Origin: Candidatus Methylomirabilota bacterium | GTDB taxonomy: Bacteria; Eisenbacteria; RBG-16-71-46 | Length of the DNA stretch: 62,220 bases | Assembly (NCBI GenBank): GCA_035606545.1 | Contig: DATNFC010000162.1 | Coordinates: 1 to 62,220, forward strand | Direction of reading: 5' to 3' | In this document: piece by piece, positions 176 through 55,952 of the stretch | Numbering within the stretch: the first letter of the stretch is position 1 | How the letters are laid out: every line of letters starts with the position of its first letter | Position numbers and translations under genes: made by a program | Notes under the pieces: generated by a model | Databases searched by the model: none | What the model saw: only the letters and a program-made list of their open reading frames with translations | Told to the model about the DNA's origin: nothing

Positions 176-3100
176 TCGCCGCGTCCGTGCCGGCGGTCTG
201 CTTCTTGTAGGCAGGTCGCGCCGGCCGGTTCACGGGGTTCTTCTTCAGCTGGTCGAGCGTCCACTCGATGGCCTTGTCCAGCTGCAGGTCCTTGCCATCC
301 ACGCCGGACTCCGGCGTGTTCTCCACCTCGATGTCGGGGTCCACGCCGTGGTTCTCGACGATCCACTTGCCGTCGGTGCTGTAGATGCCGAAGTCCGGCA
401 TCGTCACCGAGCCGCCGTCCACGAGCGGCAGGTCGTGGGAGATGCCCACGAGCCCGCCCCACGTGCGCTTGCCGATGATCGGCCCGACGCCCTGCTGCTT
501 GAAGTAGAACGGGAAGCAGTCGCCGCCCGAGCCGGCGTACTCGTTCGCGAGGATGCACTTCGGCCCGTCGATGCTCTGGGTCGGGGTGCGGAACGACTCG
601 CGGTCGCGGTTCGACCAGTACGTCCACGTCTTGCGCATCAGCCGCTCGACGAAGAAGTCGGGGATGAAGCCGCCGCCGTTGAAACGCTCGTCGACGATGA
701 TCCCCTGCCGGTCCACCTGCGCGTAGTAGCCCTTGCTGAACTCCTGGATGCCCGCGACCGCGGTGTTCGGCACGTGGATGTACGCCACGCGGCCGCCGGT
801 CGCCTTCCACACCTTCTCGCGGTTCGCCGTCACCCACGCGGTGTAGCGCAGCGACGACTCGCTTCCGACCGGCTTCACCGTGACGGTGCGCGGCTTGGAG
901 TCGTTCGGCGACGAGCCCAGCTTCAGCACGGTCTGCTTGCCGACCGTGCCCACGAACGCCTCGTACACGTTCTCGGGCGCCTTCACCGGCTGGCCGTTCA
1001 CGGCGAGCAGGTAGTCGCCTTCCCTCACCGCGATGCCGGGCTCGCCCAGCGGCGCCGGCACGTCCGAGTTCCAGTCGCGCGCGCGGTAGATCTTCGCCAG
1101 CCGGTAGAGCCCGCTCGAGGCGTCCACCGACCAGTCCACGCCGAGCAGGCCCGTGCCCACGCGCCGGACCTTCGGGAACTCGCCGCCGCCCACGTACGCG
1201 TGCGACGTGGCCAGCTCGCCGATGAGCTCGCCGAGGATGTAGTTCAGGTCCGAGCGGTGCGCCGCGAACGGCACCAGCTGGCGGTAGCGCTCGCCGACCG
1301 CCTTCCAGTCCAGCCCGCCCATCCCCGGGTCGTAGTAGAAGTCACGCTCGAGCCGCCACGCCTCGTTGAACATCTGCATCCACTCGGCGTGCGGATCCAC
1401 CCACGCCATCATCTGGTCGGTGGCGAGCTTGCCGTCGCCTACCTTCTTGCCCTCGCCCACGTCCACGATGCCCAACGTGGAATCCTTCCGGTACATGAGC
1501 TTGCCGCCGTCCTTGGAGAGCGCGAAGCGCCCGGAGACGCCGGAGATCACGGTCTTGTCCTCGCGCTTGTCGAGGTCGTAGACATGGATGCTGCGCGGCG
1601 CCTCGCCGTTCTCGTCGGGCGTCTCGTCCTCGGCGAGGAACACGACCTTGCCCTTGACGCCGACCACCGCGAGGTAGCGGCCGGCCTTGACCGGCAGCTC
1701 GGCGACACGCGTGCCCATCCCGTCCAGGTCGATGACCGTGGCGTCGGACTTGCCGCCGTCGTCGGCCGACTTCGCAGCTTTCCCGCCCTTGCCGCCCTTG
1801 TCGGACTTGTCGTCACCCTTGTCCGCGCTCTCGCCCGGCTCCTCGTCGCTCTCGGGTCCCACCGGTGAGCCCGTGGTGTCGCGCAGCGTCATCGCGTAGA
1901 GCTTGTCCGTGGTCGAGAACGTCATGTCCAGCTCGAACGTGCCGAACTCGGGCCGGAACGTGCGCCGGGAGATGAAGTAGAGGTAGCGGTTCTCGGGATC
2001 GAACGACGGCGCGAAGTCGTCGCTCATGCCGTCGGTGACCGCGGTCGATTTGCCGTTCGCGAGCGAGTGGAGCCAGATCACGCCGAAGTTGGCACCCGTC
2101 GGCTTCACGTATGCGAGCCACCTGGAGTCCGGCGACCACGCGAGCTGGAGGATCTCGCCGAACTCGCCCTTGTCCACCTGCGTCACCTTGCCGGAGGAGA
2201 CGTCGCACCAGAACACGCGCCCGGTCTTGTCCGAGAACGCGAGTTTCTTCGAGTCCGGCGACCAGGTGAGCGGGAAGCGGAACGTGCCGGACTCCTTCGT
2301 CACCTGGCGGCTTGGAGCCTTGCCGTCGGCGCCGATCACGTACGCCTGGTACTCGCCGGTGGCGTCGGACCAGTACGCGACCCACTTGCCGTCCGGCGAC
2401 CACGCGGGATCGCGCTCGCGCGCGCCCGGCGTGTTCGTGAGGTTGCGCACGTCGCCCTTCTCGGCCGGCACGGTGAACAGATCGCCGCGCGCCTCGATCA
2501 CGGCGCGCTTCGCCGACGGCGACAGGTCGAAGCCGGCCATCCAGTCGGCGACCGAGCGATACTCGGGCCGCGTCGCCGGCTTGTCGTCGGGCACCTGCAC
2601 GGAGAGCTTGTGCAGCTTCTCCGAGGGCAGGTCCATGACATACAGCCAGCCGCCGTTCTCGAACACGATCGCGTCGGTACCCACGCTCGGCCACTTCACG
2701 TCGTAGTCGGTGAACGTCGTCACCTGGCGCTGCGTCTTCTTGTCCAGGTCGTAGGCCCAGATGTTCGCGGTGCGGCCATTGCGGTCGGAGCAGTAGTAGA
2801 CCGTGCGGCCGTGGAACATCGGCCACTCGTCGGGGCCCGGCCAGTCGGCGGTGACGTTCTCCGACTTGTTCGCCTTGAAGTCGTAGACCCAGATGTTGGG
2901 CGAGTTGCCGCCCTTGTAGCGCTTCCAGGTGCGGTTGTCGTACGTGGGGGAGACGAACGCGATCTGGTTCGCGTCGGCGGAGAAGCTCGCGTAGCCCGCG
3001 GTCGGCAGCTTCAGCATGTCCTCGAAGCCGCCGGCAGCGGGGATCTTGAAGAAGCGCGTGTAGCGCTGGATGTTCGATGCGCGCGACGAGCGGAACAGCA

Positions 3101-3509
3101 GTGACTTGCCGTCCGGGTACCACTCCGCGACCACGTCGGCCCCGGGATGGAACGTGAGCCGGTTCGGCTCACCGCCCGCGTACGGGATCGTGTACGCGTC
3201 GGCGTTGCCGTCGTACTCTGCCGTGAACGCCACGGTGTTGCCGTCGGGCGAGAGCTTCGGGAACAACTCCTGGCCCTCGTGCGTCGTGAGCCGCTGCGCG
3301 ACACCGCCCGCGCGCGGCAGCGTCCACAGGTCGCCGGCGTACACGAACACGATGTGGTCGCCCTGGATGTCGGGCTGGCGCATGAGCCGGCACTCCTCGA
3401 GCGCCGCAGCGTTCCGGGGAACGAACGCGGCGCACGCGAGCGCGAGCGCGGGGATCAACAGGCGGCGCATGCGGCGGGCGCGCGACGGGTCGGCGTGCAT
3501 GGAGTCCAT
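156..3509 (-). CDS. Tricorn-like protease (TolB-type beta-propellers + PDZ-like + S41 peptidase region), secreted
   Basis: Part of the 1164-aa ORF. Repeated SPDG propeller motifs (LSPDGNTVAF, WSPDGKWVAY, WSPDSKKLAF, WSPDSRWLAY). C-terminal S41-like block (RFNGGGFIPDFF, EYAGSGGDCFPFYF, GKRTWGG). Signal peptide MRRLLIPALALACAAFVP. Start is ATG 3509 (GGAGG 11 nt upstream) or ATG 3470. Confidence 0.85.
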   Translation of the reverse strand: MDSMHADPSRARRMRRLLIPALALACAAFVPRNAAALEECRLMRQPDIQGDHIVFVYAGDLWTLPRAGGVAQRLTTHEGQELFPKLSPDGNTVAFTAEYDGNADAYTIPYAGGEPNRLTFHPGADVVAEWYPDGKSLLFRSSRASNIQRYTRFFKIPAAGGFEDMLKLPTAGYASFSADANQIAFVSPTYDNRTWKRYKGGNSPNIWVYDFKANKSENVTADWPGPDEWPMFHGRTVYYCSDRNGRTANIWAYDLDKKTQRQVTTFTDYDVKWPSVGTDAIVFENGGWLYVMDLPSEKLHKLSVQVPDDKPATRPEYRSVADWMAGFDLSPSAKRAVIEARGDLFTVPAEKGDVRNLTNTPGARERDPAWSPDGKWVAYWSDATGEYQAYVIGADGKAPSRQVTKESGTFRFPLTWSPDSKKLAFSDKTGRVFWCDVSSGKVTQVDKGEFGEILQLAWSPDSRWLAYVKPTGANFGVIWLHSLANGKSTAVTDGMSDDFAPSFDPENRYLYFISRRTFRPEFGTFELDMTFSTTDKLYAMTLRDTTGSPVGPESDEEPGESADKGDDKSDKGGKGGKAAKSADDGGKSDATVIDLDGMGTRVAELPVKAGRYLAVVGVKGKVVFLAEDETPDENGEAPRSIHVYDLDKREDKTVISGVSGRFALSKDGGKLMYRKDSTLGIVDVGEGKKVGDGKLATDQMMAWVDPHAEWMQMFNEAWRLERDFYYDPGMGGLDWKAVGERYRQLVPFAAHRSDLNYILGELIGELATSHAYVGGGEFPKVRRVGTGLLGVDWSVDASSGLYRLAKIYRARDWNSDVPAPLGEPGIAVREGDYLLAVNGQPVKAPENVYEAFVGTVGKQTVLKLGSSPNDSKPRTVTVKPVGSESSLRYTAWVTANREKVWKATGGRVAYIHVPNTAVAGIQEFSKGYYAQVDRQGIIVDERFNGGGFIPDFFVERLMRKTWTYWSNRDRESFRTPTQSIDGPKCILANEYAGSGGDCFPFYFKQQGVGPIIGKRTWGGLVGISHDLPLVDGGSVTMPDFGIYSTDGKWIVENHGVDPDIEVENTPESGVDGKDLQLDKAIEWTLDQLKKNPVNRPARPAYKKQTAGTDAATSGSGR

Positions 3510-3721
3510 GGGGGGAACGCATCCTCCGGAGGGGTCGAGGCTGGGGGGCCAGCGGAATGAGCAGTGTCCGGAGCGGTCCGCCGGCGGGTCAAGGCCCGCG
3601 CCACGAGCGCGCCGCCGCGGGCCGCGAACGAGGCGAGGACGCCGTCTCAAGAGCCTGCCCCGGAAAGTCGATAACCGGGGAGCGGCGTTGCCCCGACCCG
3701 CACACGGAGGTGGATGGCGTC

Positions 3722-5647
3722 ATGGTGGTGAACCCCGGCGGGAAGCCGGGAGAGCCCGAGCCGAGCAAGCGACCCCGTCGGCCCGTCGACGACGGGCTCG
3801 ACGACCTGTTCGCGGATCTTGGCTCGCCGCGGCCCGCAGGGCCCGCGCGCGAGCCCGCGGGCGGTCTCGGCTGGGACGTGCTCCCGGCTGCGAACGAGCC
3901 GCCCGCGCTCGAGGCGGACGAGTTGCACGCCGCTCCCGAGGACGATGCGCTCGAGGACGACGGCCGCGCGCCGCTCGAGCCCGCGGTCAAGGCCGCGGGC
4001 GTGTGGCTGAACATGTTCGCCCGCACGCTCAAGACCTGCCGGCTCTACGACGCCGGCAACCCGGCCGCCGTGCGCTTCCGCGAGGAGCTGGCGCGTTCGC
4101 TCCGCCAGCTGCTCACCGAGTGGGGCGCGGTGACGTACCGCTTCACTGCGGACGACGTCACCTGCGATGGGCACTCGCTCCACCCGGCGCGCTCGCGCGA
4201 GGACAACCTCGCGTTCGCGTTCTATCGCGACGGCGTGCGCGGCCTCACGATCACGCCCGGCGCCGAGCCGCGCGAGTGCGACGCGCTCGTGGACGCTGTG
4301 CTCGGCGTGACCGGCCAGAACCTGGACGGCGACGATCTCGTGACGCTGCTCTGGGAGGCGAACCTCCGCCACGTCGACGTGGACTACATCCCCGCCGAGG
4401 GCGAGACCGGCACCGCGGACGCGGCGGCGCAGCCGGAGGAGGGCGCGCTCCTGCCGTGGCCCACGGCGGGCGGCGGCGAGCAGGAGAAGTCGGCGGGCGA
4501 GCCGTCCGCGGGCCCCGAGCGCTCCGAAGACTGGTCCATGGGCCAGCTCACCGAGGAGGTGGAGGCCACGTTCGCCGAGCTGGACTTCATGTCGCAGCAG
4601 GAGGTGCCACGCTTCATGCAGGAGTTCGCGGCCGAGCGCAACGTGCCGCCGGCGACCGCGGCGCTGGCGGTGGCGCACGCCTGCCTGAACGCCGATCCCG
4701 GCGAAGACGACCGCAAGGAGATGGCGCGCTTCCTGCCGCGCGTGCTGCGCGCGGCGATCGCGGCCGGCGCCTGGGCCGACGCGCGCGAGGCGGTGCGGCT
4801 CGTGCGCGTGTGCGGCTCCAGCGAATGGTCGGACGAGCGCTTCTCGCAGGAGGTGCTGCAGCCGGTGTCGATCACGCGCGCGGCCGAGATGCTCGACACG
4901 CAGGGCCCGGCGGCGTTGAGCGAGTTCATCGCGCTCGCGAACGAGCTGGGCCCGACCGCGCTCGACTGGCTCACGCTCACGCTCAGCGAGTGCCAGACGC
5001 GCATGGCCCGCCAGCTCGTGGCCGAGGCCATCGCCGTGCGCGCGCAGGAGGATCCGTCGCGCCTGGCGCCCTGGATCGCCGACCCGCGCTGGTACGTGGT
5101 CCGCAATGTCGTCCACATCCTCGGTTGGGTGGGCGGGCCGGGCGTCGTGCCGCTGCTCCAGAACGCAGTCAAGTACCCCGACCCGCGGGTGACCGGGGAA
5201 GTGGTGAACGCGCTGCAGGCGGTGGAGCCGCGGCTCGCGCGCCCGGTGCTGATCCGCGCGCTCGAGGGCGCGGACTCGAAACTGTTCTGCCAGATCCTGC
5301 AGCAGCTCTCGGCCGCGAGAGATCCGGCTGTCGCGCGCTACGTCACCGCGTTCATCACCCAGGACCGCTTCCTCCAGCGCCCGGTCGAGGAGCGGCGCGC
5401 GATCTACGCCGCGATCGCCTCCACCGGCGGCGACGAGATCGTGGCCGAGCTGGAAGCGGCGATGAACGGCGGCAACTGGTTCGATCGCGAGCAGGAGGTG
5501 CACCGGCACGCGATCGCGCGCTGTCTCGCGCGCATCAACACGCCCAAGGCGATCGCCGCGCTCGAGGCCGGCGTCCGCTCGCGGCGCGCGCCGGTGCGCC
5601 AGGCGTGCGAGGCGGCGCTGCAACAGCAGCAGCGGAAGGCGGCATGA
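3722..5647 (+). CDS. HEAT-repeat protein with an N-terminal module shared with the downstream HD-GYP protein
   Basis: ATG 3722 lies 11 nt after GGAGG (3706-3710). The C-terminal half has HEAT/PBS-lyase-like repeats (VRNVVHILGWVGGPGVVPLLQNAVKYPDPRVTGEVVNALQAV, RPVLIRALEG, INTPKAIAALEAG). Stop TGA 5645-5647 overlaps the next ATG. Confidence 0.7.
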   Translation: MVVNPGGKPGEPEPSKRPRRPVDDGLDDLFADLGSPRPAGPAREPAGGLGWDVLPAANEPPALEADELHAAPEDDALEDDGRAPLEPAVKAAGVWLNMFARTLKTCRLYDAGNPAAVRFREELARSLRQLLTEWGAVTYRFTADDVTCDGHSLHPARSREDNLAFAFYRDGVRGLTITPGAEPRECDALVDAVLGVTGQNLDGDDLVTLLWEANLRHVDVDYIPAEGETGTADAAAQPEEGALLPWPTAGGGEQEKSAGEPSAGPERSEDWSMGQLTEEVEATFAELDFMSQQEVPRFMQEFAAERNVPPATAALAVAHACLNADPGEDDRKEMARFLPRVLRAAIAAGAWADAREAVRLVRVCGSSEWSDERFSQEVLQPVSITRAAEMLDTQGPAALSEFIALANELGPTALDWLTLTLSECQTRMARQLVAEAIAVRAQEDPSRLAPWIADPRWYVVRNVVHILGWVGGPGVVPLLQNAVKYPDPRVTGEVVNALQAVEPRLARPVLIRALEGADSKLFCQILQQLSAARDPAVARYVTAFITQDRFLQRPVEERRAIYAAIASTGGDEIVAELEAAMNGGNWFDREQEVHRHAIARCLARINTPKAIAALEAGVRSRRAPVRQACEAALQQQQRKAA

Positions 5648-14777: not shown

Positions 14778-17003
14778 ATGCGCTCGCCCCCCGTCCGTTT
14801 GGCCGTGCTCATTCCGGCGTTCGCTGCGGCGCTGTTCGGCGCGAAGGTGGTCAATGCCTCCCCAGGGCTTCCACTGGTCGCTGCCGACAGCGCCGGGGCG
14901 GACACCACGCGCCCGGCTCAGGTCCCCGCTGTATCTCCTGTCGATTCCACGCGTCAGGTGAGCACACCGGACACGGTCACGACGCACCGCCTGGGTGTGG
15001 CCGACACGATCACCACGCTGCCGCCCGTGCACGTCGAGGGCGACCGCGAGAACCCGAACGCCCGCTCCTCGGCCACATCGGTGCACCTGGACCGCGGAAC
15101 GATCGCGCGCTTCCAGCCGATGACGGTCGCCGACGCGCTCCTCGCCGCACCGGGGCTCTACGTGTCGCGCACCGGGCCGTGGGCGTCGCACATCTCGATG
15201 CGCGGACTCTCGGGCGAGCGCGTGCTCGTGCTCGTGGACGGCATGCGCCTGCAGACGGGACGCGGCCACGGCGCGCAGACCTCGCTCGTCGCCATCGACC
15301 GGCTGGAATCCGTGGACGTGCTCCCGGGCGCATCGGGTGCCCTGTATGGCTCCGACGCGCTCGGCGGCGTGGTCGAGCTGAACACGCACCACAACCTGCT
15401 CACCGAGCGCGCGGCCACGGTCATGCTCGTCGCGCACTCGGCCACGCCCGGCGAGGAGAACTCGGCAACGGGCCGGCTGCGCTACACGTCGCCCGTCTTC
15501 GGCGCCGAGTTCTGGGCCGGGGCGGGGGGGCTGGATGCGCTCGTGACTCCCGACGGCCGCGTGCCCAACAGCAGCTATCACGAGTACGACATCTCCGGTC
15601 GTGTGACCGCGAAACTCTGGACCTCGATGCTCGACTTCGAGCACACGCAGCACGAGACGCGCGACATCCAGCTGCCGGCGTTCAGCGATCTGGCCGGCTC
15701 GCACGCCGAGTTCCCGCTCCAGGGACGCGAGGCCAACCGGCTGGAGTGGTCGATGCCCGCCGCCGGTCGCCGCCCCGAGATGCGCGTGCTCGCCAACAAC
15801 CAGCGCTTCCGCACGAACTTCGTGGAGACGACCGTGGACAGCCAGTTCTTCCGCGGCCGCTACATCGCGACCAGGAACACACGCGCCGACGATCGCATCA
15901 CCACCACGTCCAGCGGCGTGCAGCCGTCGCTCACGATCGGCGTCCTCAAGCTGAACGGCGAATACCGCCGCGAAACGACACAGGGCCCCCGCTACACCGA
16001 CGTCAGCATCGTGAACACGTCGGGTGTGCAGACGAGCGCCACGCGCGAGCCCGGTGAGTCCATGCCGACGGCCACGCGCGACGTGCTCGCGGGGGCGGGG
16101 TACGTCGGATGGACGACGTGGAAGCATCTGCGGCTCGAGTCCGGCCTGCGCTACGACTGGCTCCGCTCCAGCGCCGACTCGACGCCGCAGAGTTTCACGC
16201 GCGAGCTGAACGTCACCGACCAGCGCTGGAGCGGCGAGGGTGGCCTCTCGCGTGCGTTCGGTGCGGTGACGCCGTACGGGCGCATCGCGACGGGCTTCCG
16301 CGCGCCGAACCTGGAAGAGCGTTACTTCAACGACGACATCCACGGCGGCCTGAGGCTGTTCGGGAACCCCGACCTGGTCGCCGAGCGCACGTACAGCACG
16401 GAGGTGGGCGTGCGCACGGGCGAGATGGCCGGCGGCCGGCTGATCGCCGCGCGCGTCTCGGCGTACCGCTCGCGCGTGGACGAACTGATCACGCTCAAGT
16501 ACCTGGGCCAGCTCTACCTCATCCCACGCTTCCAGTACACGAACGTGCACAAGGCGAGGCTGGACGGCATCGAGATGCAGGTGGACGGCAAGCTGGGCTG
16601 GCTGCGCGCAAGCGCGAACGCCGCGTTCCCGCGCGGCCGCGATCTCGAGACCGGCGTCACGATCCCCGACCTGGGCGCGGCGCGCGCGACGCTCGACCTG
16701 CGCATGCCGGTGGCGCGCGTGCTGCCGAACGGAGCGTTCGCGCTCCGCATCCGCTGGACCGACGCCAGCGCGCAGGACGACGTGAACCTGGCGCGCGCCG
16801 CATCGTGGTATGCCGCCACGGAACTTGCGTGCGTGGCCTGGGGGACGCGCATCTCCCTGGCCGTGACGAACCTCACGAACACCCGTTATCGCGAGCCGCT
16901 GAGCTTCATCCCCGCGCCCGGCCGCACCGTGCTGCTCTCGTTGCGGCGCGAGATGGCGCTCCCGTGGCCTCGCGTCGCTCATGACCCCGGAATGCGTCCA
17001 TGA
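14778..17003 (+). CDS. TonB-dependent outer-membrane receptor
   Basis: Signal peptide. Plug motifs TVADALLAAPGLYVSRTG, ISMRGLSGERVLVLVDGMRL, ESVDVLPGASGALYGSDALGGVV. Long beta-barrel with NLTNTRYREP near the end. Confidence 0.9.
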   Translation: MRSPPVRLAVLIPAFAAALFGAKVVNASPGLPLVAADSAGADTTRPAQVPAVSPVDSTRQVSTPDTVTTHRLGVADTITTLPPVHVEGDRENPNARSSATSVHLDRGTIARFQPMTVADALLAAPGLYVSRTGPWASHISMRGLSGERVLVLVDGMRLQTGRGHGAQTSLVAIDRLESVDVLPGASGALYGSDALGGVVELNTHHNLLTERAATVMLVAHSATPGEENSATGRLRYTSPVFGAEFWAGAGGLDALVTPDGRVPNSSYHEYDISGRVTAKLWTSMLDFEHTQHETRDIQLPAFSDLAGSHAEFPLQGREANRLEWSMPAAGRRPEMRVLANNQRFRTNFVETTVDSQFFRGRYIATRNTRADDRITTTSSGVQPSLTIGVLKLNGEYRRETTQGPRYTDVSIVNTSGVQTSATREPGESMPTATRDVLAGAGYVGWTTWKHLRLESGLRYDWLRSSADSTPQSFTRELNVTDQRWSGEGGLSRAFGAVTPYGRIATGFRAPNLEERYFNDDIHGGLRLFGNPDLVAERTYSTEVGVRTGEMAGGRLIAARVSAYRSRVDELITLKYLGQLYLIPRFQYTNVHKARLDGIEMQVDGKLGWLRASANAAFPRGRDLETGVTIPDLGAARATLDLRMPVARVLPNGAFALRIRWTDASAQDDVNLARAASWYAATELACVAWGTRISLAVTNLTNTRYREPLSFIPAPGRTVLLSLRREMALPWPRVAHDPGMRP

Positions 17004-18982
17004 TCTGCCACCTGTCCCCACGCAGGTGCTCGAACGCGACCCTCGTAGCATTGCTACTCGCACTTGCAACAGGTCTGGCGCACGCGCGCAGCGGCGCCAA
17101 CCCCGAGGGTCGCTTGATACTCGGGCCGGAAGGCCCGCGTCCCCCAGCGCCGGCGGCGTCCGCAGTGGGCGCCGCCGGCGAGGCTTTCGCACGGGCGCCG
17201 CATCCCACGTTCGCGGTCGGGCTGCCGCTGGGTGCGGTGCAGATCGACTCCACCTGGTACGACCTGCAGGACATGGGCTCGCTCGGTCACCGCATCGAGG
17301 TGGGCACCGACGGCCGCATCCACGTGACCTGGCAGGACGACTTCTGCGAGCTGGGCGGCGGCTGCCCACCGAACCTGTCCGCGCCGCAGCCGCACCCGAA
17401 CCGCGGCATGGGCTACGCCTACCGCGACGCCACCGGCGGGTGGCACAACCTCGGCAAGGTCATGGACCTGCGCATCCCGAACTGCTGCGCCCCTCGCGAC
17501 CTCGCGGGCGGCTTCGGCACGCTCGCGCTCCCGTCCTCGGGGCGGGTCGCGATCGCGCAGCACTTGAACGAGGAGGGCTGTGACCTGCGCGGCGAGTTCC
17601 ACCTCGAGGACGCGCCGGGATCGAACCTGTTCCGTGGCTACCTGAGCCCGATCGTGAGTCCCAGCTACCTGTTCCCGCAGGTGACGGCGAACCCGAATGG
17701 CTCGTTCACGTTGCTGGGCGAGATCCCCAAGGGAGGCGAGTACGACGAGACGAACGAGATCCGCGTCGCCTACCTCCCGGCGCCCGGCACCAACTACACC
17801 TGCTTCAACTGGCAGATCGGTGCATGGACCGCGATCGCGCCCGCGACGCTGTTCCGTGATGGGAAGCCCGCGTTCCCGTGCATCGCGGCGTCGTCGAACG
17901 GCCGCGTCGGCGTGGCCGTGACCGACCTGGGCGGCAACGTCTACCTGATCGAGTCGAGCAACGGTTCGTTCGTGCCCGGCACGGTCACCACGCGCAAGCT
18001 CACGAACTACAGCGACGCCACGGTCGTGAAGAGCGATTCCACGTCGACCGAGTGGCGGCCGTTCATCCACTGCCACATCGCCTACAACGACACCACGCCG
18101 AACGTGGTGTGGAGCGAATGGCAGGCGCGCAAGATCGACGCCGCGATCGAGTATTTCGACTGGCGGAGCAGGATTCGCCACTGGACGCCCGGGCGCGGTG
18201 TGCAGACCGTGTACCAGGTGCCGGCCGGCGACGCGGATCACTTCGACGACGTCGACCTCGGGCTCGCGGGGCCCGTCCCCGGGTTCAATACGCTGAGCGT
18301 GGATTGGCCGCAGGTGGGCTTCAGTCCCACCGGCGAAGAGACGTACGTGGCGTTCCTGCGTTTCACCGACTCCCAGGTGGACAACACGGCCAACGGCGGC
18401 TTTCCCGGCGTGATCACCGGCATCGGCTTCGGCGACATATTCTGCTCGGTCGCGCGGCCCTTTGGCGGGTACCAGCCGGCGCAGAACCTCACGAACACGC
18501 CCAACACGGACGAACGCTTCTTCTCGCTGGCCACGCGCAATCCGTTGGGAAGGGCGCGCGTGCTGTTCCAGGCCTCCGCCACGAACCAGGCGGGGTGCGC
18601 GATCATCGGCGATCGCGGCGTGGCACCCGGCAACATCCTGCGCCGCATCGCCTACATGGAGACCCCGCTCACCTACACCTGGCTCGACGTTCCCGCTTCT
18701 CTCGCGGGCCCGGTCACGGGTAGGCTGCGAGTGTCCCCGAACCCGGTGCTGGCGCATGCCCGGGTGCACTTCGACGCCGATCCCGCCGCGCTCGAGCGGA
18801 AGGTCGAAGTGCTGGATCTCACCGGCCGGAGGGTGGCAACGCTGACGCTGCCCGCCGGCGCGCGCTCGGCCGAGTGGGCCGGGCGCGACCTCGACGGCCG
18901 CGCCGCGCCGGCGGGGGTTTACTTCGCAAGGATGGAGGACGATGCGCGCGCTGCCAACGTGCGCTTCGTTCTGGCTCGATGA
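17000..18982 (+). CDS. Secreted beta-rich protein with C-terminal FlgD-Ig/T9SS-like sorting domain
   Basis: ATG 17000 forms an ATGA overlap with the receptor stop. Signal peptide LVALLLALATGLAHA. C-terminal domain (18719-18982): VSPNPV...VEVLDLTGRRVATL...WAGRDLDGRAAPAGVYFARM...VRFVLAR*. Confidence 0.8.
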   Translation: MICHLSPRRCSNATLVALLLALATGLAHARSGANPEGRLILGPEGPRPPAPAASAVGAAGEAFARAPHPTFAVGLPLGAVQIDSTWYDLQDMGSLGHRIEVGTDGRIHVTWQDDFCELGGGCPPNLSAPQPHPNRGMGYAYRDATGGWHNLGKVMDLRIPNCCAPRDLAGGFGTLALPSSGRVAIAQHLNEEGCDLRGEFHLEDAPGSNLFRGYLSPIVSPSYLFPQVTANPNGSFTLLGEIPKGGEYDETNEIRVAYLPAPGTNYTCFNWQIGAWTAIAPATLFRDGKPAFPCIAASSNGRVGVAVTDLGGNVYLIESSNGSFVPGTVTTRKLTNYSDATVVKSDSTSTEWRPFIHCHIAYNDTTPNVVWSEWQARKIDAAIEYFDWRSRIRHWTPGRGVQTVYQVPAGDADHFDDVDLGLAGPVPGFNTLSVDWPQVGFSPTGEETYVAFLRFTDSQVDNTANGGFPGVITGIGFGDIFCSVARPFGGYQPAQNLTNTPNTDERFFSLATRNPLGRARVLFQASATNQAGCAIIGDRGVAPGNILRRIAYMETPLTYTWLDVPASLAGPVTGRLRVSPNPVLAHARVHFDADPAALERKVEVLDLTGRRVATLTLPAGARSAEWAGRDLDGRAAPAGVYFARMEDDARAANVRFVLAR

Positions 18983-18997
18983 CACCGCACGTTGCTC

Positions 18998-19813
18998 ATG
19001 CCCCAGACAACCGCGTCCCGGAGGTGTCCCTTGTCCTTTGCTCGCAGTGTGTCCGCCGCGATCTTGCTCATCGCGGCATTCGCCGCAAGTGCCGACGCCG
19101 CACCGCCCATCTTCAAGCAGGAGCGCGTCCCCGGCGGCGTGTTGGAGCAGTACTGGGCGCCGGGCTTCGGCGTCGGCCGCATCTTCACCCCGCTCACGTT
19201 GTCGCCGGGTGATCCCGCGTCCCCCAACCCGTCCGGTGACAACACGGTCGCGGTGCTCACGAACAACGAGACCGGCCTCGGCGGCATCGCGGCGTCCTTG
19301 ACCGATACCGGCGGCCAATTCGATTACTCGTTCGAGGCCGACTTCTTCACCGGGGGCGGCGAGACGCGGCGCGGCATCATCGTCCGCGCCGATCCGTCGA
19401 ACGACTTCCAGACGTTCTACCAGTTCGTGATCAATGCCGGCCTGTTCCAGATCCGGTTCCGCAAGTTCGTCAACGGCGCTCCGGTCGTTCCCGACCTGGC
19501 GAGCTGGTTCACGACCGTGCTGCCGGGCAGCACCGGCGCGCTGGCGCAGAACTCGTGGCACCACATGGAGGTCCGCGCGTTCGGCAACCGATTCCACTGC
19601 CTCCTCGACGGTTTCGACCTCACCTCGTTGTTGAGCGGCGGGGAGATCGTCGACAACGACTCACCGCTCCTGGTCGGTTGGGTGGGCGCCTACAACTTCA
19701 GCGCCTCGATCGGCGAGGTGCCGGTCTACTTCGACAACCTGAGGGTCGGTCCGCCGCTGCCCACGCCGGTGGCGTCGAAGACCTGGGGCGCGCTCAAGAA
19801 GCTCTACCGGTAG
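18998..19813 (+). CDS. Secreted LamG/DUF1080-like (concanavalin-type lectin/glucanase fold) protein
   Basis: ATG 18998 (alternative TTG 18992). Signal peptide AAILLIAAFAASADA. Motifs: RRGIIVRAD, FYQFVINAGLFQIRFRKF, NSWHHMEVRAFGNRFHCLLDG. Confidence 0.7.
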   Translation: MPQTTASRRCPLSFARSVSAAILLIAAFAASADAAPPIFKQERVPGGVLEQYWAPGFGVGRIFTPLTLSPGDPASPNPSGDNTVAVLTNNETGLGGIAASLTDTGGQFDYSFEADFFTGGGETRRGIIVRADPSNDFQTFYQFVINAGLFQIRFRKFVNGAPVVPDLASWFTTVLPGSTGALAQNSWHHMEVRAFGNRFHCLLDGFDLTSLLSGGEIVDNDSPLLVGWVGAYNFSASIGEVPVYFDNLRVGPPLPTPVASKTWGALKKLYR

Positions 19814-19834
19814 CCAACTCTCATGCCGTGACAT

Positions 19835-19874
19835 TCGCCGGCCCCGGGGATTGTGGCTCGCCCGGGGCCGGCGA
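19835..19874 (+). terminator. Strong hairpin after the LamG-like gene
   Basis: TCGCCGGCCCCGGG-(12 nt)-CCCGGGGCCGGCGA: a 14-bp perfect stem beginning 22 nt after the stop and followed by TATCATTTCC. Confidence 0.55.
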
Positions 19875-19927
19875 TATCATTTCCGCCCCCTTCGTCCGGC
19901 ATCCCCCAGGTGGCCCGAGGAAGCGTA

Positions 19928-20071
19928 TTGACCCCCCGCGCGCCGATCGCCCTCACGCTCGGAGTCGCCGCCGGCCTGGCCCTCACGGCCATGCCCGCGA
20001 CCGCCGTGCTCGACGTGGAAAGCAGAGGACCGACGCTCAACGCCGGCGGCCGCTTCGTGGTCATGCGATGA
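19928..20071 (+). CDS. Mini-ORF (47 codons): signal peptide plus a 21-aa mature peptide that mimics both ends of the downstream 797-aa protein
   Basis: TTG 19928 lies 4 nt after GAGGAAG. Translates (M)TPRAPIALTLGVAAGLALTAMPATA|VLDVESRGPTLNAGGRFVVMR*. About 42 of 47 codons end in G/C. The stop overlaps the ATG of the next gene (ATGA). Confidence 0.5.
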   Translation: MTPRAPIALTLGVAAGLALTAMPATAVLDVESRGPTLNAGGRFVVMR

Positions 20072-22461
20072 ACGTCTGCTCGCTCGCGGTACTCCGGCTC
20101 GGGTTCGCGGTCGGGATCTGCGTCGCGCTCGCGACGCCCGCCTCCGCGGTGCTCGATGTCGAGAACCGCGGCCCCACGCTCAATGCCGGAGCGTTCGCCA
20201 TGCGCGTCACGAACATCGGCGCGCTGGGCAACCCGTTCTATGCCGTGGGCCGCTCGTTCGATCCGTCGTTCGAGTTCCCGCGCGGCAGCGGCCAGCAGCT
20301 CCTGAACCACGCCGCGCTGTGGGTCGGTGCCAGCGACCCGAGCGGCTTGAAGCGCGTCTCCGGCGGCCCGCTCATGGAGTGGCGGCCCACGCTCGACCCG
20401 GACGACCATGTGCGCGTGGCCTACGGCGGCAACCCGGGCACGCTGCGCTACGTCGATGACGACGGCGACGGGCGGATTGACGAGGAGTTCCTGGACGGCC
20501 GCGACGACGATGGCGACGGCGAGATCGACGAGGATCTCGGGCTGATCGGCACGCAGAACCTGTGCGCGCGCTACACGGACGACCAGCCCGAGGCGGTGCA
20601 ATTCGGCTACACGAACGGCGAAGCGCACGTGCCGCTGCACCTGGACGTGAAGCAGGAGGTGTTCACGTGGGCGATCCCGGGCTACGACCACGTCGCCGGG
20701 GTCAAGTTCGTGATCACGAACCAAGGCCAGCAGCCGCTCACCGACGTGCGCATCGGCCTGCTCGCGGACCTCGACGTGCGCGAGGCCGGCTCGGCGGGCG
20801 GACACGTCAACGACGTCGTGGCCACGACGCCGTACGACCAGGTGTTCTATGACGGCACGTCGCGGGTGAAGAACGTGCAGCGCTACGACCCGATCGCGGG
20901 CCCGGTGCCCTATTTCAAGGACTGTTTCTGGGACGAAAGAGGCAGCTGCCCCGCGCTCGAGGACGGCTTGAAGGGAAGTGGCCTGCCCGCGGTGGCCGTG
21001 GTGCCGCTATGGCACACGACCGACCCGCTCAACTGGCCGGTGGTGCAGGGCCGCATCAGCGACAGCATCGTGAGGCCCTACATCACCGCGCCGCTGCACG
21101 TGTCGTTCCAGCACTTCTGGTTCGCGAGCGACCTGCCGCCGGGCGAGGGCGGGCTCCCGATCGTCGACGCCGACCGCTACCGCGCGCTCGCCGGGCAGTA
21201 CCCCACGGTGGCCGACACGACCGACGCGCACGACTACGTGACGCTCATCTCGTGCGGGCCGTTCCCGAAGTTGAACCCGGGCAGCAGCTACGAGGTGGAC
21301 CTGGCGATCGTCGCGGCCACGCCCGATTCGCTGCCGGCCGCGATCGCCCACGCCGTGCAGGTGCACCACGGTGGCTATGTGAACGTGCTGCCCGACGAGC
21401 CCGAAGCGAACTGGGGCGTCTGGAACCATGGCAGGAGCGGCATCACCGGCCACGAGATCTGCTACGAGCCACCGGTCGGGCTCGAGTTCCTGATCGATCC
21501 GCACTGCCTGCTGAAGTTCATCCCCGATCCGATCGCGAACGTGGAATCGGCGGCGCACTACGAGCACGGCAACTGCGTGTGGTCCGACTTCGACTGCGAC
21601 GTGTGCACGGGCTTCGACGGCAAGGAGACGCTGGCCCGCTGGCGTGACCCGGCCGGGGCGCCGACGCCGCCCGCGTGGCGGACGGTCCCGGGCGACCGGC
21701 AGGTGACCGTGGAGTGGGACGACCGCAGCGAGGTGCTGCAGGACGCGCAGATCTATGGTGGAACGAACGTGCGCTTCATCGGGTACAACATCTACCGGCT
21801 CGACGACTGGCGCGGACGCAGCGCCGACGTGCCGCCCACAGGCAAGTTCCAGCAGGTGGCCTCGTTCGCACGCGACACCACGCTGGGCGCCCGACCCCTC
21901 GCCCAGGTCACCGACACCACCGTGGACTACGACCGCATCCTCTACGAGCGCAAGCTGCACCCGATCGGTCGCTACAAGTGGACCGACCCGCGCGTGCTGA
22001 ATGGGTTCGACTACCTCTACGTGGTCACCGCACTGACCCAGCGCACGCTCCAGGTGTTGAACGGTGTGCCGATCACCGAGCTGCTCGAGAGCCCGATCCT
22101 CGCCGGCCTCGACTCGGTGGTGACGCCGCACACGGAATCGCGCACGACCGGCTCGAGCGCGTGGGTGGTGCCGAACCCGTTCCGTGCGCACGCACCGTGG
22201 GACCGCCCGCCCGTGCCCGGCGACACGTTCGCACGCCATCTCGACTTCATGGGCCTGCCGCGGGCGACGTGCACGATCCGCATCTATACGCTCGCCGGCG
22301 ATCTCGTGCAGGTGATCGAGCACGACGGCACGCACGGCGACGGCCAGGCGCGCTGGGACCTGATTTCAAGGAACGGTCAGGACATCGCGTCCGGGATCTA
22401 CCTGTTCACCGTCGATTCGGGCGGATCGCACCAGGTGGGTCGGTTCGTGGTCATGCGATGA
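20068..22461 (+). CDS. Large secreted protein: Asp-rich Ca-binding-like repeats, FN3-like module, C-terminal FlgD-Ig/T9SS-like sorting domain
   Basis: Signal peptide ...VALATPASA|VLDVENRGPTLNAG. Motifs: DDDGDGRIDEEFLDGRDDDGDGEIDED; VTVEWDDRSE...GYNIYR. C-terminal domain (22156-22461): VVPNPF...IRIYTLAGDLV...WDLISRNGQDIASGIYLFTV...GRFVVMR*. Confidence 0.85.
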   Translation: MNVCSLAVLRLGFAVGICVALATPASAVLDVENRGPTLNAGAFAMRVTNIGALGNPFYAVGRSFDPSFEFPRGSGQQLLNHAALWVGASDPSGLKRVSGGPLMEWRPTLDPDDHVRVAYGGNPGTLRYVDDDGDGRIDEEFLDGRDDDGDGEIDEDLGLIGTQNLCARYTDDQPEAVQFGYTNGEAHVPLHLDVKQEVFTWAIPGYDHVAGVKFVITNQGQQPLTDVRIGLLADLDVREAGSAGGHVNDVVATTPYDQVFYDGTSRVKNVQRYDPIAGPVPYFKDCFWDERGSCPALEDGLKGSGLPAVAVVPLWHTTDPLNWPVVQGRISDSIVRPYITAPLHVSFQHFWFASDLPPGEGGLPIVDADRYRALAGQYPTVADTTDAHDYVTLISCGPFPKLNPGSSYEVDLAIVAATPDSLPAAIAHAVQVHHGGYVNVLPDEPEANWGVWNHGRSGITGHEICYEPPVGLEFLIDPHCLLKFIPDPIANVESAAHYEHGNCVWSDFDCDVCTGFDGKETLARWRDPAGAPTPPAWRTVPGDRQVTVEWDDRSEVLQDAQIYGGTNVRFIGYNIYRLDDWRGRSADVPPTGKFQQVASFARDTTLGARPLAQVTDTTVDYDRILYERKLHPIGRYKWTDPRVLNGFDYLYVVTALTQRTLQVLNGVPITELLESPILAGLDSVVTPHTESRTTGSSAWVVPNPFRAHAPWDRPPVPGDTFARHLDFMGLPRATCTIRIYTLAGDLVQVIEHDGTHGDGQARWDLISRNGQDIASGIYLFTVDSGGSHQVGRFVVMR

Positions 22462-22588
22462 CCGAATTCTCGCGCGCGAGCCTTGCGCCGGCTGGGAGCG
22501 GCGGTCACACTCGATGCGCCTCGTCGGCCCGCGACGGCCGGCGGGGCGTCTTCGTCCCATGTCCCCGTGTTCCCGGAGGCCAGGTTTG

Positions 22589-23332
22589 ATGCGGTTCGCT
22601 TGCGCTTTCCTGCTGCTCGCAGTCGCCTCGCCGGCTCTCGCTTCGGGCGTCGGGCTGCGCTGGGGATCCTGCGAGGGCCAGTCGAACCGCAATTTCGCGT
22701 GCGACAAGAGCACGGGCTCCGAGCTGCTCGTGGGCTCTTTCGACGCGCCGAGCGGCATCGCGAACCTGAGCGGCATGGAGGTGATCCTGCGCATCACCTC
22801 CGCGGGCGGCACCGTCCCCAGCTGGTGGCAGATGTTCGCGAACGGAAGCTGCCGGCGCTCATCGGTCGCCGCGTCGTTCGACATGAGCGACCAGTTCGAG
22901 TGCGACGACGTCTGGAATGGTCAGGCCGGGGGCGGTCTCGCCAAGTGGGAGAACGACGGCACCGGCATCAACGTGGGAATGGCCGCCGCGGTGCCGCGGT
23001 CAGCGTGGGGGCCCATCTCGAGCGGGCGCCAGTACGCCGCGTTCAAGCTCATCATCAACCACCTGAAGAGCAGTGGTCCGGGGGCGTGTGGCGGTTGTGA
23101 AACGCCGATGTGCATCAAGGTCGAGATGATCCGCCTCACGGATCCCGGCCGGCTCATCGACGCGAACAGCCACAAGTGGGAGAACAAGACCTGGGACCTC
23201 ACGGACGGCATCACCGGCATGGGCGGGGCATCGCAGGTTGCGACCTGGCAGGGCGGTACGCCGAACTGCGCCGCTGCCGCGTCGAAAGTCAGCACCTGGA
23301 GCGAACTGAAAGCCCGCTTCAAGGGGAAGTGA
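22589..23332 (+). CDS. Secreted Cys-rich hypothetical protein
   Basis: ATG 22589 follows GGAGG (22574-22578). Signal peptide MRFACAFLLLAVASPALASG. Many spaced Cys residues (WGSCEGQSNRNFAC, NGSC, FEC, GACGGCETPMC, PNC). Confidence 0.65.
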   Translation: MRFACAFLLLAVASPALASGVGLRWGSCEGQSNRNFACDKSTGSELLVGSFDAPSGIANLSGMEVILRITSAGGTVPSWWQMFANGSCRRSSVAASFDMSDQFECDDVWNGQAGGGLAKWENDGTGINVGMAAAVPRSAWGPISSGRQYAAFKLIINHLKSSGPGACGGCETPMCIKVEMIRLTDPGRLIDANSHKWENKTWDLTDGITGMGGASQVATWQGGTPNCAAAASKVSTWSELKARFKGK

Positions 23333-55140: not shown

Positions 55141-55952
55141 CTGGATTCCTCCGATTTCGAGGGATCGACAGCGCGGAGCAACCGCCCTCGACCGGGCGCT
55201 CCGTGGGGGCCAGAGGCCCCTGTACAGCGGGGAATGGGGCGGGGAACGCGACTGCTGGCGGGACACGACGACGCGAGCAGCGACCAGGACGGGGCGCTCG
55301 AGCGGGACGTGTTCGAGATCGGGAGGGCGCGGGGTACCGGGGATGAGTTCACCCGGGGCAGCGGCGACCCTGCGTGGGTTGGGTGCGAGCGGCGAACGTC
55401 GGCGGTGGATTCACGCGCGGCGCGCGGCAGAGGGGATGCGAGGTTCGAGAGGGGTCCGGCGCGCGGGGGGCCGCGGCTCTCGAGCGGCTGGGACACGAAG
55501 CGCGGACGCAGGCGATGACGCTGGTGGACGCAGGCGCCGAGCACGGCGATCGACAGCGCGCCGGCTGCACTCACCGGCATGCCGGCGGCGCCGTTCGCCC
55601 GTGCGCCATCGTGGCGATGGCCGATCGCGAGCGCGTTCGCGCGATGGTTCGTGCGCGGCCGCTTCGGCGCGGGGGCGGGCACGGGCAGCGATACGGCGGT
55701 GATCTCGTGCGCGCGCAGGTTGGGCTCGGTGGGGTGCGTGCGGGCGTGGCGGCGGTGGTGCACGCCACCCACGTGCGCGGCGCGGTGCGTGGAGCTGGCA
55801 CCGGCGGCGGCGACCGTGGGCTTCAGGGTGGACCCGCCTGCGGCCGGTGCGGCGCTCGCGCTCGATGTGACGAGCAGCGCGGCGAACAACGTTCCGGCGA
55901 GCACGTACGAGGCGGTCAGGATCCGCGTGCGGGGACTCACGTAGCGAAGCAT
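55137..55952 (-). CDS. Possible His/Arg/Pro-rich exported protein (doubtful)
   Basis: ATG 55952. Signal-like ILTASYVLAGTLFAALLVTSSASA, then a His-rich stretch (THRAAHVGGVHHRRHARTHP). The stop forms an ATGA overlap with the comEA-like start. The C-terminal half looks like non-coding translation. Confidence 0.3.
   Translation of the reverse strand: MLRYVSPRTRILTASYVLAGTLFAALLVTSSASAAPAAGGSTLKPTVAAAGASSTHRAAHVGGVHHRRHARTHPTEPNLRAHEITAVSLPVPAPAPKRPRTNHRANALAIGHRHDGARANGAAGMPVSAAGALSIAVLGACVHQRHRLRPRFVSQPLESRGPPRAGPLSNLASPLPRAARESTADVRRSHPTHAGSPLPRVNSSPVPRALPISNTSRSSAPSWSLLASSCPASSRVPRPIPRCTGASGPHGAPGRGRLLRAVDPSKSEESR

Follow-up and report, generated by a model that had tools for sequence, protein, structure and literature searches.

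The 47-codon open reading frame (mini-ORF) in front of the gene for a 797-aa protein in the window (the whole stretch of 62,220 nucleotides analysed here) is quite probably the scar of a rearrangement, which now only passes ribosomes on to the intact gene behind it and does not represent a new functional peptide. We infer that the peptide encoded by the mini-ORF is itself without function.

The mini-ORF and the gene behind it

The mini-ORF starts with a TTG at 19928, and its stop codon TGA (20069-20071) shares the letters ATGA with the ATG at 20068 of the 797-aa gene (Table 1). The order in its product is signal peptide, VLDVESRGPTLNAG and finally GRFVVMR. The predicted signal peptide SP1 shows the usual basic, hydrophobic and A-x-A parts, and the signal peptides of full-length genes appear to be its orthologues. 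Both ends of the mini-ORF are homologous to the ends of the full-length parent gene, and the similarity to the window found by tblastn (E = 1.6e-9) is far above chance.

Everything that the preliminary description had reported on the sequence as such, i.e. the ORF, the repeat, the 18-nt 3' end, the codon usage, the ribosome binding site and the hairpin, was found to be correct. When the 15 codons 20003-20047 are compared to 20146-20190, 14 residues are identical, nine codons differ synonymously and one non-synonymously (S/N), with differences at 11 of 45 nt. The 18-nt 3' end (TTCGTGGTCATGCGATGA) at 20054-20071 is identical to 22444-22461, and the G and R codons preceding it encode the same residues with a synonymous difference (GGC CGC vs GGT CGG), so that the complete ends match apart from two synonymous differences. 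Of the 47 mini-ORF codons 42 end in G or C.

Table 1. Coordinates of the features at the mini-ORF locus, numbered along the window.
Feature	Position	Strand	Remarks
GC-rich hairpin, terminator-like	19835..19874	+	3' of the 273-aa gene; stem of 13-14 bp
Conserved 5' leader GGCATCCCCCAGGTGGCCCGAGGAAG	19897..19923	+	ends in the Shine-Dalgarno sequence (SD) GAGGAAG (19917-19923); near-invariant ahead of the TTG of orthologues
Mini-ORF	19928..20071	+	47 codons; probable ancestral gene start (SP1 and 14 mature residues) joined in frame to the gene-end heptad
SP1, probable original signal peptide of the gene	19928..20005	+	nt identity of 85-87% with L003-L006 (single-copy orthologues), which share its TTG and SD
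N-terminal motif copy A (VLDVESRGPTLNAG)	20006..20047	+	near-invariant family-wide
Cluster of mini-specific changes, 6 bases	20018..20032	+	GAA AGC AGA GGA CCG; the only amino acid change (N to S), three rare codons
Family gene end (last 7 codons and stop)	20048..20071	+	GGC CGC TTC GTG GTC ATG CGA TGA
143-nt module	20048..20190	+	missing from all single-copy orthologues; register ambiguous within the repeat
Gene for 797-aa secreted protein, intact, Candidatus Eisenbacteria family	20068..22461	+	ATG inside the ATGA overlap, no SD
SP2, strongly diverged signal peptide (MNVCSLAVLRLGFAVGICVALATPASA)	20068..20148	+	54-65% nt identity to signal peptides of the clade
N-terminal motif copy B (VLDVENRGPTLNAG)	20149..20190	+	first residues of the mature 797-aa protein
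3' end of the 797-aa gene (GRFVVMR and stop)	22438..22461	+	homologous to the end of the mini-ORF

Distribution of the mini-ORF

Only one population carries the mini-ORF. Its members, which are at least 99.6% identical, comprise the window and the contigs L001, L002 and L099, which come from three further JGI samples; the same ORF is also called on additional JGI and ENA contigs. Two haplotypes which differ by SNPs inside the region exist in this population. Short direct repeats can mislead assemblers, and an assembly chimera or a collapsed repeat could in principle produce such a structure. However, the identical junction is present in at least four JGI samples as well as in ENA assemblies, independently assembled and on both haplotypes, which leaves next to no room for a chimera and rules out the misassembly that the preliminary description had recommended to check for.

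At the same locus the mini-ORF is absent in L003-L007, L009, L010, L014, L016, L018 and L103. An ORF combining the N-terminal motif with the C-terminal heptad was found nowhere else among 14 metagenome and 80 GTDB loci. A scan of 98 loci for orphan N- or C-terminal motifs revealed none either, and 103 loci overall contain no equivalent. A word-indexed search of 5.8 billion proteins, which is insensitive to queries as short as the mini-ORF product, returned only the ORF of the window. Exhaustive searching of 1.84 billion representative proteins with HMMER yielded only the window ORF, a frameshifted stub (P0132, described below) and one unrelated protein. The preliminary description had made its reading of a selected peptide depend on the existence of homologous mini-ORFs in relatives, and none was found; the frameshifted stub on contig L100 is the only partial exception.

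Origin of the mini-ORF

The closest relatives (L003-L006, 91-92% aa identity) and the more distant L007, L009, L010, L014, L016, L018 and L103 all possess a single gene, which begins with an SP1-type signal peptide at the SD and TTG homologous to those of the mini-ORF. The hairpin, the leader, the SD and the first 120 nt of the mini-ORF are orthologous to the gene start in ten Candidatus Eisenbacteria contigs. Because the relatives lack exactly 143 nt, these 120 nt represent the ancestral start of the gene. The 143-nt module consists of GRFVVMR and stop, the ATGA overlap, SP2 and copy B of the N-terminal motif, in this order, and the segment 452-512 of L003 aligns twice, to 19988-20048 and to 20131-20191. 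At the junction (GGCCGCTTCGTGGTCATGCGATGAACGTC) there is a microhomology of only 1-2 nt.

Between the two motif copies 9 of 12.2 synonymous sites are different, and the divergence of SP2 from SP1 amounts to 42%. Compared to any signal peptide of the clade SP2 reaches 54-65% nt identity, with a null expectation of 51 +/- 3.7%. Yet on either side of the junction the dS between the window and L006 is no more than 0.20-0.26. Because the motif copies and signal peptides are so far apart at such a low distance to the nearest orthologue, the module would appear, on the basis of these distances, to derive from a diverged homologue and not from a young copy made in place. A recent duplication in place, or gene conversion without constraint, was rejected on account of the same values. 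A foreign tract reaching into the gene body was also rejected, since synonymous and non-synonymous divergence from L003-L006 is uniform along the length of the body and the flanking genes show a similar dS to L006. No donor of the module and no source of SP2 was found in the window or in the fetched loci; a match at 55210-55383 of the window was considered as a paralogue, but it is weak and not a family gene. The architecture expected of a precursor, with head-to-tail copies overlapping by ATGA, is present in L057, and none was found in the window's own clade.

We propose that in one population the 143-nt module split the original start of the gene (leader, SD, TTG, SP1 and 14 mature codons) from the gene body. 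The module would represent a head-to-tail junction, in which the end of an upstream copy leads through ATGA into the beginning of a downstream copy, with its start, its signal peptide and its first 14 mature codons; an in-frame loss of codons 42-790 from the upstream member of a tandem pair would have an equivalent outcome. With the reading frame preserved across the join, the former start would now open an ORF of 47 codons, and the TGA of this ORF overlaps with the ATG of the intact gene. Transcription and ribosome loading would stay at the ancestral leader and SD, and ribosomes would translate the 47-codon stub, terminate at 20069-20071 and re-initiate at the ATG at 20068. This re-initiation would be the only route to the 797-aa protein, which has no SD. 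The mini-peptide, composed of the signal peptide and 21 residues, would be a by-product which may undergo export and degradation. Survival of the in-frame join would be due to its having kept the hand-over of ribosomes.

The history could also have run in the opposite direction, with the mini-ORF plus gene or a full tandem as the ancestral state and the relatives collapsed between the motif repeats of 45-61 nt. Tandem pairs recur in the family, the motif of L003/L006 resembles the mini-ORF copy in its first five codons and the copy of the large gene thereafter, the high synonymous divergence between the motif copies would fit an old split, and L100 shows two 3' ends. However, the window is nested by dS (about 0.2) among L003/L006, L004 and L005, with L007, L103 and L010 outside (0.33-0.53). 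As all these relatives are single copy, at least three to four independent collapses would have to be assumed versus one gain, and a full tandem is retained in no close relative. We therefore regard this reversed history as improbable.

With truncated gene remnants the mini-ORF shares the restriction to one lineage, the ends homologous to the parent, the microhomology of 1-2 nt and a decayed example in L100. Unlike the usual remnants, the mini-ORF is joined in frame, is led by an SD and ends exactly at the start of the next gene, and the module comes from a diverged homologue instead of the resident copy. Because an in-frame ORF with its own SD ends exactly at the next start, the stub likely has a role in expression.

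Upstream region and probable translational coupling

The hairpin upstream of the mini-ORF is kept in 10 relatives, with compensatory changes at several pairs of the stem. The leader GGCATCCCCCAGGTGGCCCGAGGAAG is near-invariant before the TTG in L003-L006, L010, L014, L016 and L018, and its SD sits 4 nt before the TTG at 19928. This conservation among relatives is higher than that of the region coding for the signal peptide. In L016 a second copy of GCATCCCCCAG was observed at 1732. The loop of the hairpin reads TTGTGG and TATCAT follows just past the stem, at a spacing of 18 nt (TTGTGG-N18-TATCAT). This arrangement may represent a promoter nested in the terminator, plus a 5'-UTR element; a consensus scan for promoters gave none.

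The only conserved leader, SD and start at the locus precede the mini-ORF and not the 797-aa ORF. No GGAG, GAGG, AGGA, GGGA or AAGG was found at -20 to -4 of the ATG at 20068. The mini-ORF has its own SD and start, its stop overlaps the downstream start and this downstream start lacks an SD, which is the anatomy of a coupled gene pair. The same kind of 4-nt overlap without an SD is native to the window at 17000 and 52835 and is also found at the second gene of L057.

The 797-aa gene appears, from its substitution pattern, to evolve still under purifying selection. Its dN/dS against L003 is 0.19, equal to the value between L003 and L004, and the polymorphisms in the mature part which are younger than the rearrangement comprise four synonymous and one non-synonymous change. 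Because this gene lacks an own SD and yet is under purifying selection, the mini-ORF is probably a coupling leader, and translation of the 797-aa gene would depend on coupling via the mini-ORF. The suggestion of the preliminary description that the mini-ORF could be a translational-coupling leader controlling the large gene is thus supported by the anatomy of the locus, in the form of the leader, SD and start, the lack of an SD at 20068, the overlap and the constraint on the gene.

In E. coli trpE-trpD and trpB-trpA are classic operon pairs which are coupled through an overlapping stop and start (ATGA). As in such pairs, an SD of its own precedes the mini-ORF, whose stop overlaps the downstream ATG, and no SD is present at the downstream start; the same ATGA layout is native to the window (17000-17003) and to the full-length paralogues of L057. 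Unlike the trp pairs, the upstream partner in this putative coupling is not a gene but a 47-codon remnant of the former start of the downstream gene itself. Attenuator leader peptides and uORFs such as trpL and ermCL are short ORFs between a promoter and a structural gene, and in this position the mini-ORF resembles them. In contrast to them it shows no conservation in relatives, no alternative RNA structures and no run of codons suited for sensing. Rfam gave no match at the region. Nothing suggests that the mini-ORF serves a regulation which goes beyond plain ribosome hand-over. The idea that the six clustered changes within the mini-ORF open the downstream start was rejected, as the unpaired probability of 20058-20080 is 0.26-0.29 for the actual sequence versus 0.36 for the reverted one.

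It could be argued that the scar has no role at all, that the 797-aa ORF is translated by SD-independent initiation at the ATG at 20068 and that the overlap is incidental. An obvious SD is missing at roughly half of the window's crude gene starts, and SD-independent initiation may be common in this organism; in addition, the start region is not strongly structured, with a folding no more stable than that of shuffled sequences (z = +2.07). However, the surviving join is exactly in frame and the ATGA is kept, the same design is found at 17000 and in L057, and L100 has an out-of-frame join together with a dead downstream copy. We consider a scar without a role to be rather unlikely and prefer the interpretation as a scar which hands over ribosomes.

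A second scar in a different lineage

The stub P0132 (48 codons) is located on L100-L102 and on one ENA contig, which belong to a different lineage of the clade, and here the large gene is lost. In L100 (1308-1604) leader, start, signal peptide and VLDVENRGPTLNA are followed by a 9-nt filler and then by a gene end. This end is out of frame and consists of 28 well-preserved nt (STRTGRFVVMR and stop), 93% identical to L103; behind it a decayed copy of the last approximately 33 codons and the normal 3' flank are found. Because the junctions differ, the events in the window and in L100 are independent. They show that joins of an N-terminal and a C-terminal stub recur in this family as products of rearrangement, in L100 without a live downstream gene.

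The 5' breakpoint of L100 is only 5 nt apart from that of the window, and both are located inside the quasi-palindrome AACGC-CGGC-GCGTT. This near-shared breakpoint could reflect a mutational hotspot or, less likely, selection for such stubs. The stubs of L100-L102 show no differences among each other, and hence a population dN/dS is uninformative.

Sequence changes within the mini-ORF

The preliminary description had concluded from the synonymous-only divergence that the peptide is selected. This conclusion is not supported, as the compared segments are not sister copies which aged in place. Since both copies resided in functional genes for the larger part of their history, mostly synonymous differences are expected. 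The identity of the last 18 nt is uninformative, because the very same 18 nt also close the gene in L003-L006 and L010. The amino acid identity noted earlier belongs to the family as a whole, and the synonymous-only pattern mirrors constraint which acts on the parent genes throughout the family.

The changes specific to the mini-ORF copy are concentrated at 20018-20032, where the closest relatives have GAG AAC CGC/CGT GGC/GGT/GGG CCC/CCG. The Ser of the mini-ORF falls on a position at which 93 of 93 homologues have N or D. The codons of this cluster are rare (AGA 0.8% of Arg, GGA 6% of Gly, GAA 11% of Glu), and none of 61 family genes has AGA at this site. Four of the six derived changes lead from G/C to A, three of them from C to A, and the result is a purine-rich, SD-like stretch (AGCAGAGGA) built from the rarest codons of the genome. 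A source sequence for this cluster was found in none of the fetched loci.

Among the mini-specific steps within the motif 4-5 of 6-7 are synonymous, an excess with p of about 0.01-0.04 (Fisher 0.035, Nei-Gojobori counts) that is based on few sites. It may point, weakly, to a constrained peptide or to a conversion patch from an unseen functional homologue. The excess is unexplained, and the sample is too small to support selection.

The second haplotype (L099) carries a T to M polymorphism (T36M) in the mini-ORF. Five of the 14 SNPs private to L099 in a comparison of 7.2 kb lie within 184 nt (19926-20109): one in the spacer between SD and start, T36M in the mini-ORF, and in SP2 the changes V3A and L6R and one synonymous SNP. 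In addition, C20034T creates an in-frame ATG 4 nt past the derived GAGG. In SP2 there are three polymorphisms in 81 nt between the haplotypes. This clustering could be caused by a short recombination tract or by a fast-evolving junction region.

The mini-peptide and the sorting domain

According to the preliminary description the peptide might also serve as a minimal substrate or decoy of the sorting pathway. The peptide keeps just the last strand, seven residues, of a sorting domain of about 70 residues, which does not favour this idea. In published work, the signal for type IX secretion (T9SS) is a whole 7-stranded beta-sandwich, the architecture of which is essential (PMC11285876, PMC4804311). 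In the mini-peptide a complete C-terminal Ig-like beta-sandwich (approximately 70-100 residues) is lacking and GRFVVMR alone is left. The 47-aa product gave no match to NCBIfam. Comparison with the T9SS type A CTD cargo of Bacteroidota shows that the C-terminal domain of the parent 797-aa protein weakly matches TIGR04183 and the PorZ models. Even the parent stays below the cut-offs of these CTD models, and the mini-ORF retains only the final strand of a domain which, in the known systems, is the signal in its folded form.

Under the reading of a functional peptide kept by purifying selection, Sec export and cleavage would leave 21 residues, composed of the N-terminal strand and the last strand of the sorting domain. 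These might serve the CTD sorting pathway, or the 797-aa protein, as decoy, as minimal substrate or as a chaperone that complements a strand. Most mini-specific substitutions are indeed synonymous, the join is in frame with the signal peptide intact, and a second lineage, that of L100, also joined an N-terminal stub to a C-terminal piece. Against this stand the restriction to one population, with absence from ten relatives and from the 1.84 billion representative proteins, the Ser at the site conserved as N or D, the segregating T/M polymorphism, the drift of the codons to the rarest ones, and the remaining seven sorting-domain residues without a match to any family model. The stub of L100, furthermore, is frameshifted, so that the C-terminal strand is not encoded there. 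Such a functional peptide is in our view very unlikely. It is scarcely credible that VLDVESRGPTLNAG and GRFVVMR together form a selected strand mimic which engages the CTD-sorting machinery or the 797-aa protein, with the L100 join as a recurrent, favoured outcome.

The 797-aa protein and its family

A search with the 797-aa protein resulted in 545 matches, the named ones belonging to Candidatus Eisenbacteria. No Pfam domain was detected in it, and its C-terminus shows only sub-threshold matches to T9SS CTD (TIGR04183, PorZ) and FlgD-Ig models. In the predicted structural model (pLDDT 78.5, medium confidence) approximately the N-terminal half would resemble beta-sandwich domains of glycoside hydrolases and phosphorylases, and the C-terminus the CTDs of RgpB, PorU and PorZ, with a putative CTD at residues ~720-797. 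In the family (93 homologues) V[LM]D..[ND].GP.L..G behind the signal peptide is near-invariant, and the C-terminal motif is G[RK]FV..R. At residues ~125-160 there is an invariant stretch of acidic residues (VDDDGDGRIDEEFLDGRDDDGDGEIDED) reminiscent of a calcium-binding motif, and several cysteines are invariant in an alignment of 25 sequences.

Many Eisenbacteria genomes harbour multiple copies of this family, often in tandem, and 489 stretches were found in GTDB species representatives; L012/L061 and several GTDB MAGs also belong to these multi-copy, often tandem cases. L057 possesses two full-length tandem paralogues (156-2495 and 2492-4855), which overlap by ATGA and are old paralogues. Further tandem pairs are present in L044, L022, L026 and L053. 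In L098 (RBG_16_71_46 MAG, position 1683) the frame of the N-terminal motif meets a stop after 123 codons and the match runs on, which could be due to a frameshift, a pseudogene or a sequencing error.

Genes for two proteins of 273 and 272 aa, both lacking known domains, flank the 797-aa gene (locus window 14778-23332). These two genes show a much faster, mosaic evolution between relatives (dS 0.25-0.7, aa identity 65-82%). Further upstream a TonB-dependent receptor (14778-17003) overlaps by ATGA the gene of a 660-aa protein (17000-18982) with a FlgD-Ig/T9SS-like C-terminus.

Implications

The mini-ORF is a real feature of an ordinary kind, namely a lineage-specific scar which probably doubles as a coupling leader, and not a conserved, selected mini-protein. 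It opens no new kind of biology. For genome scans it gives reason for caution: if a mini-ORF copies the ends of its neighbour, synonymous-only differences do not show selection on it, and this applies whenever the copies descend from diverged functional genes with strongly conserved ends. The locus further illustrates how expression may be rescued, as an in-frame scar can deliver ribosomes to a gene stripped of its own start signals; the gene would have survived its decapitation because the overlap of stop and start was kept. For this family of Eisenbacteria surface proteins the findings point to repeated tandem duplication and end-to-end deletion, with two independent breakpoints within 5 nt.
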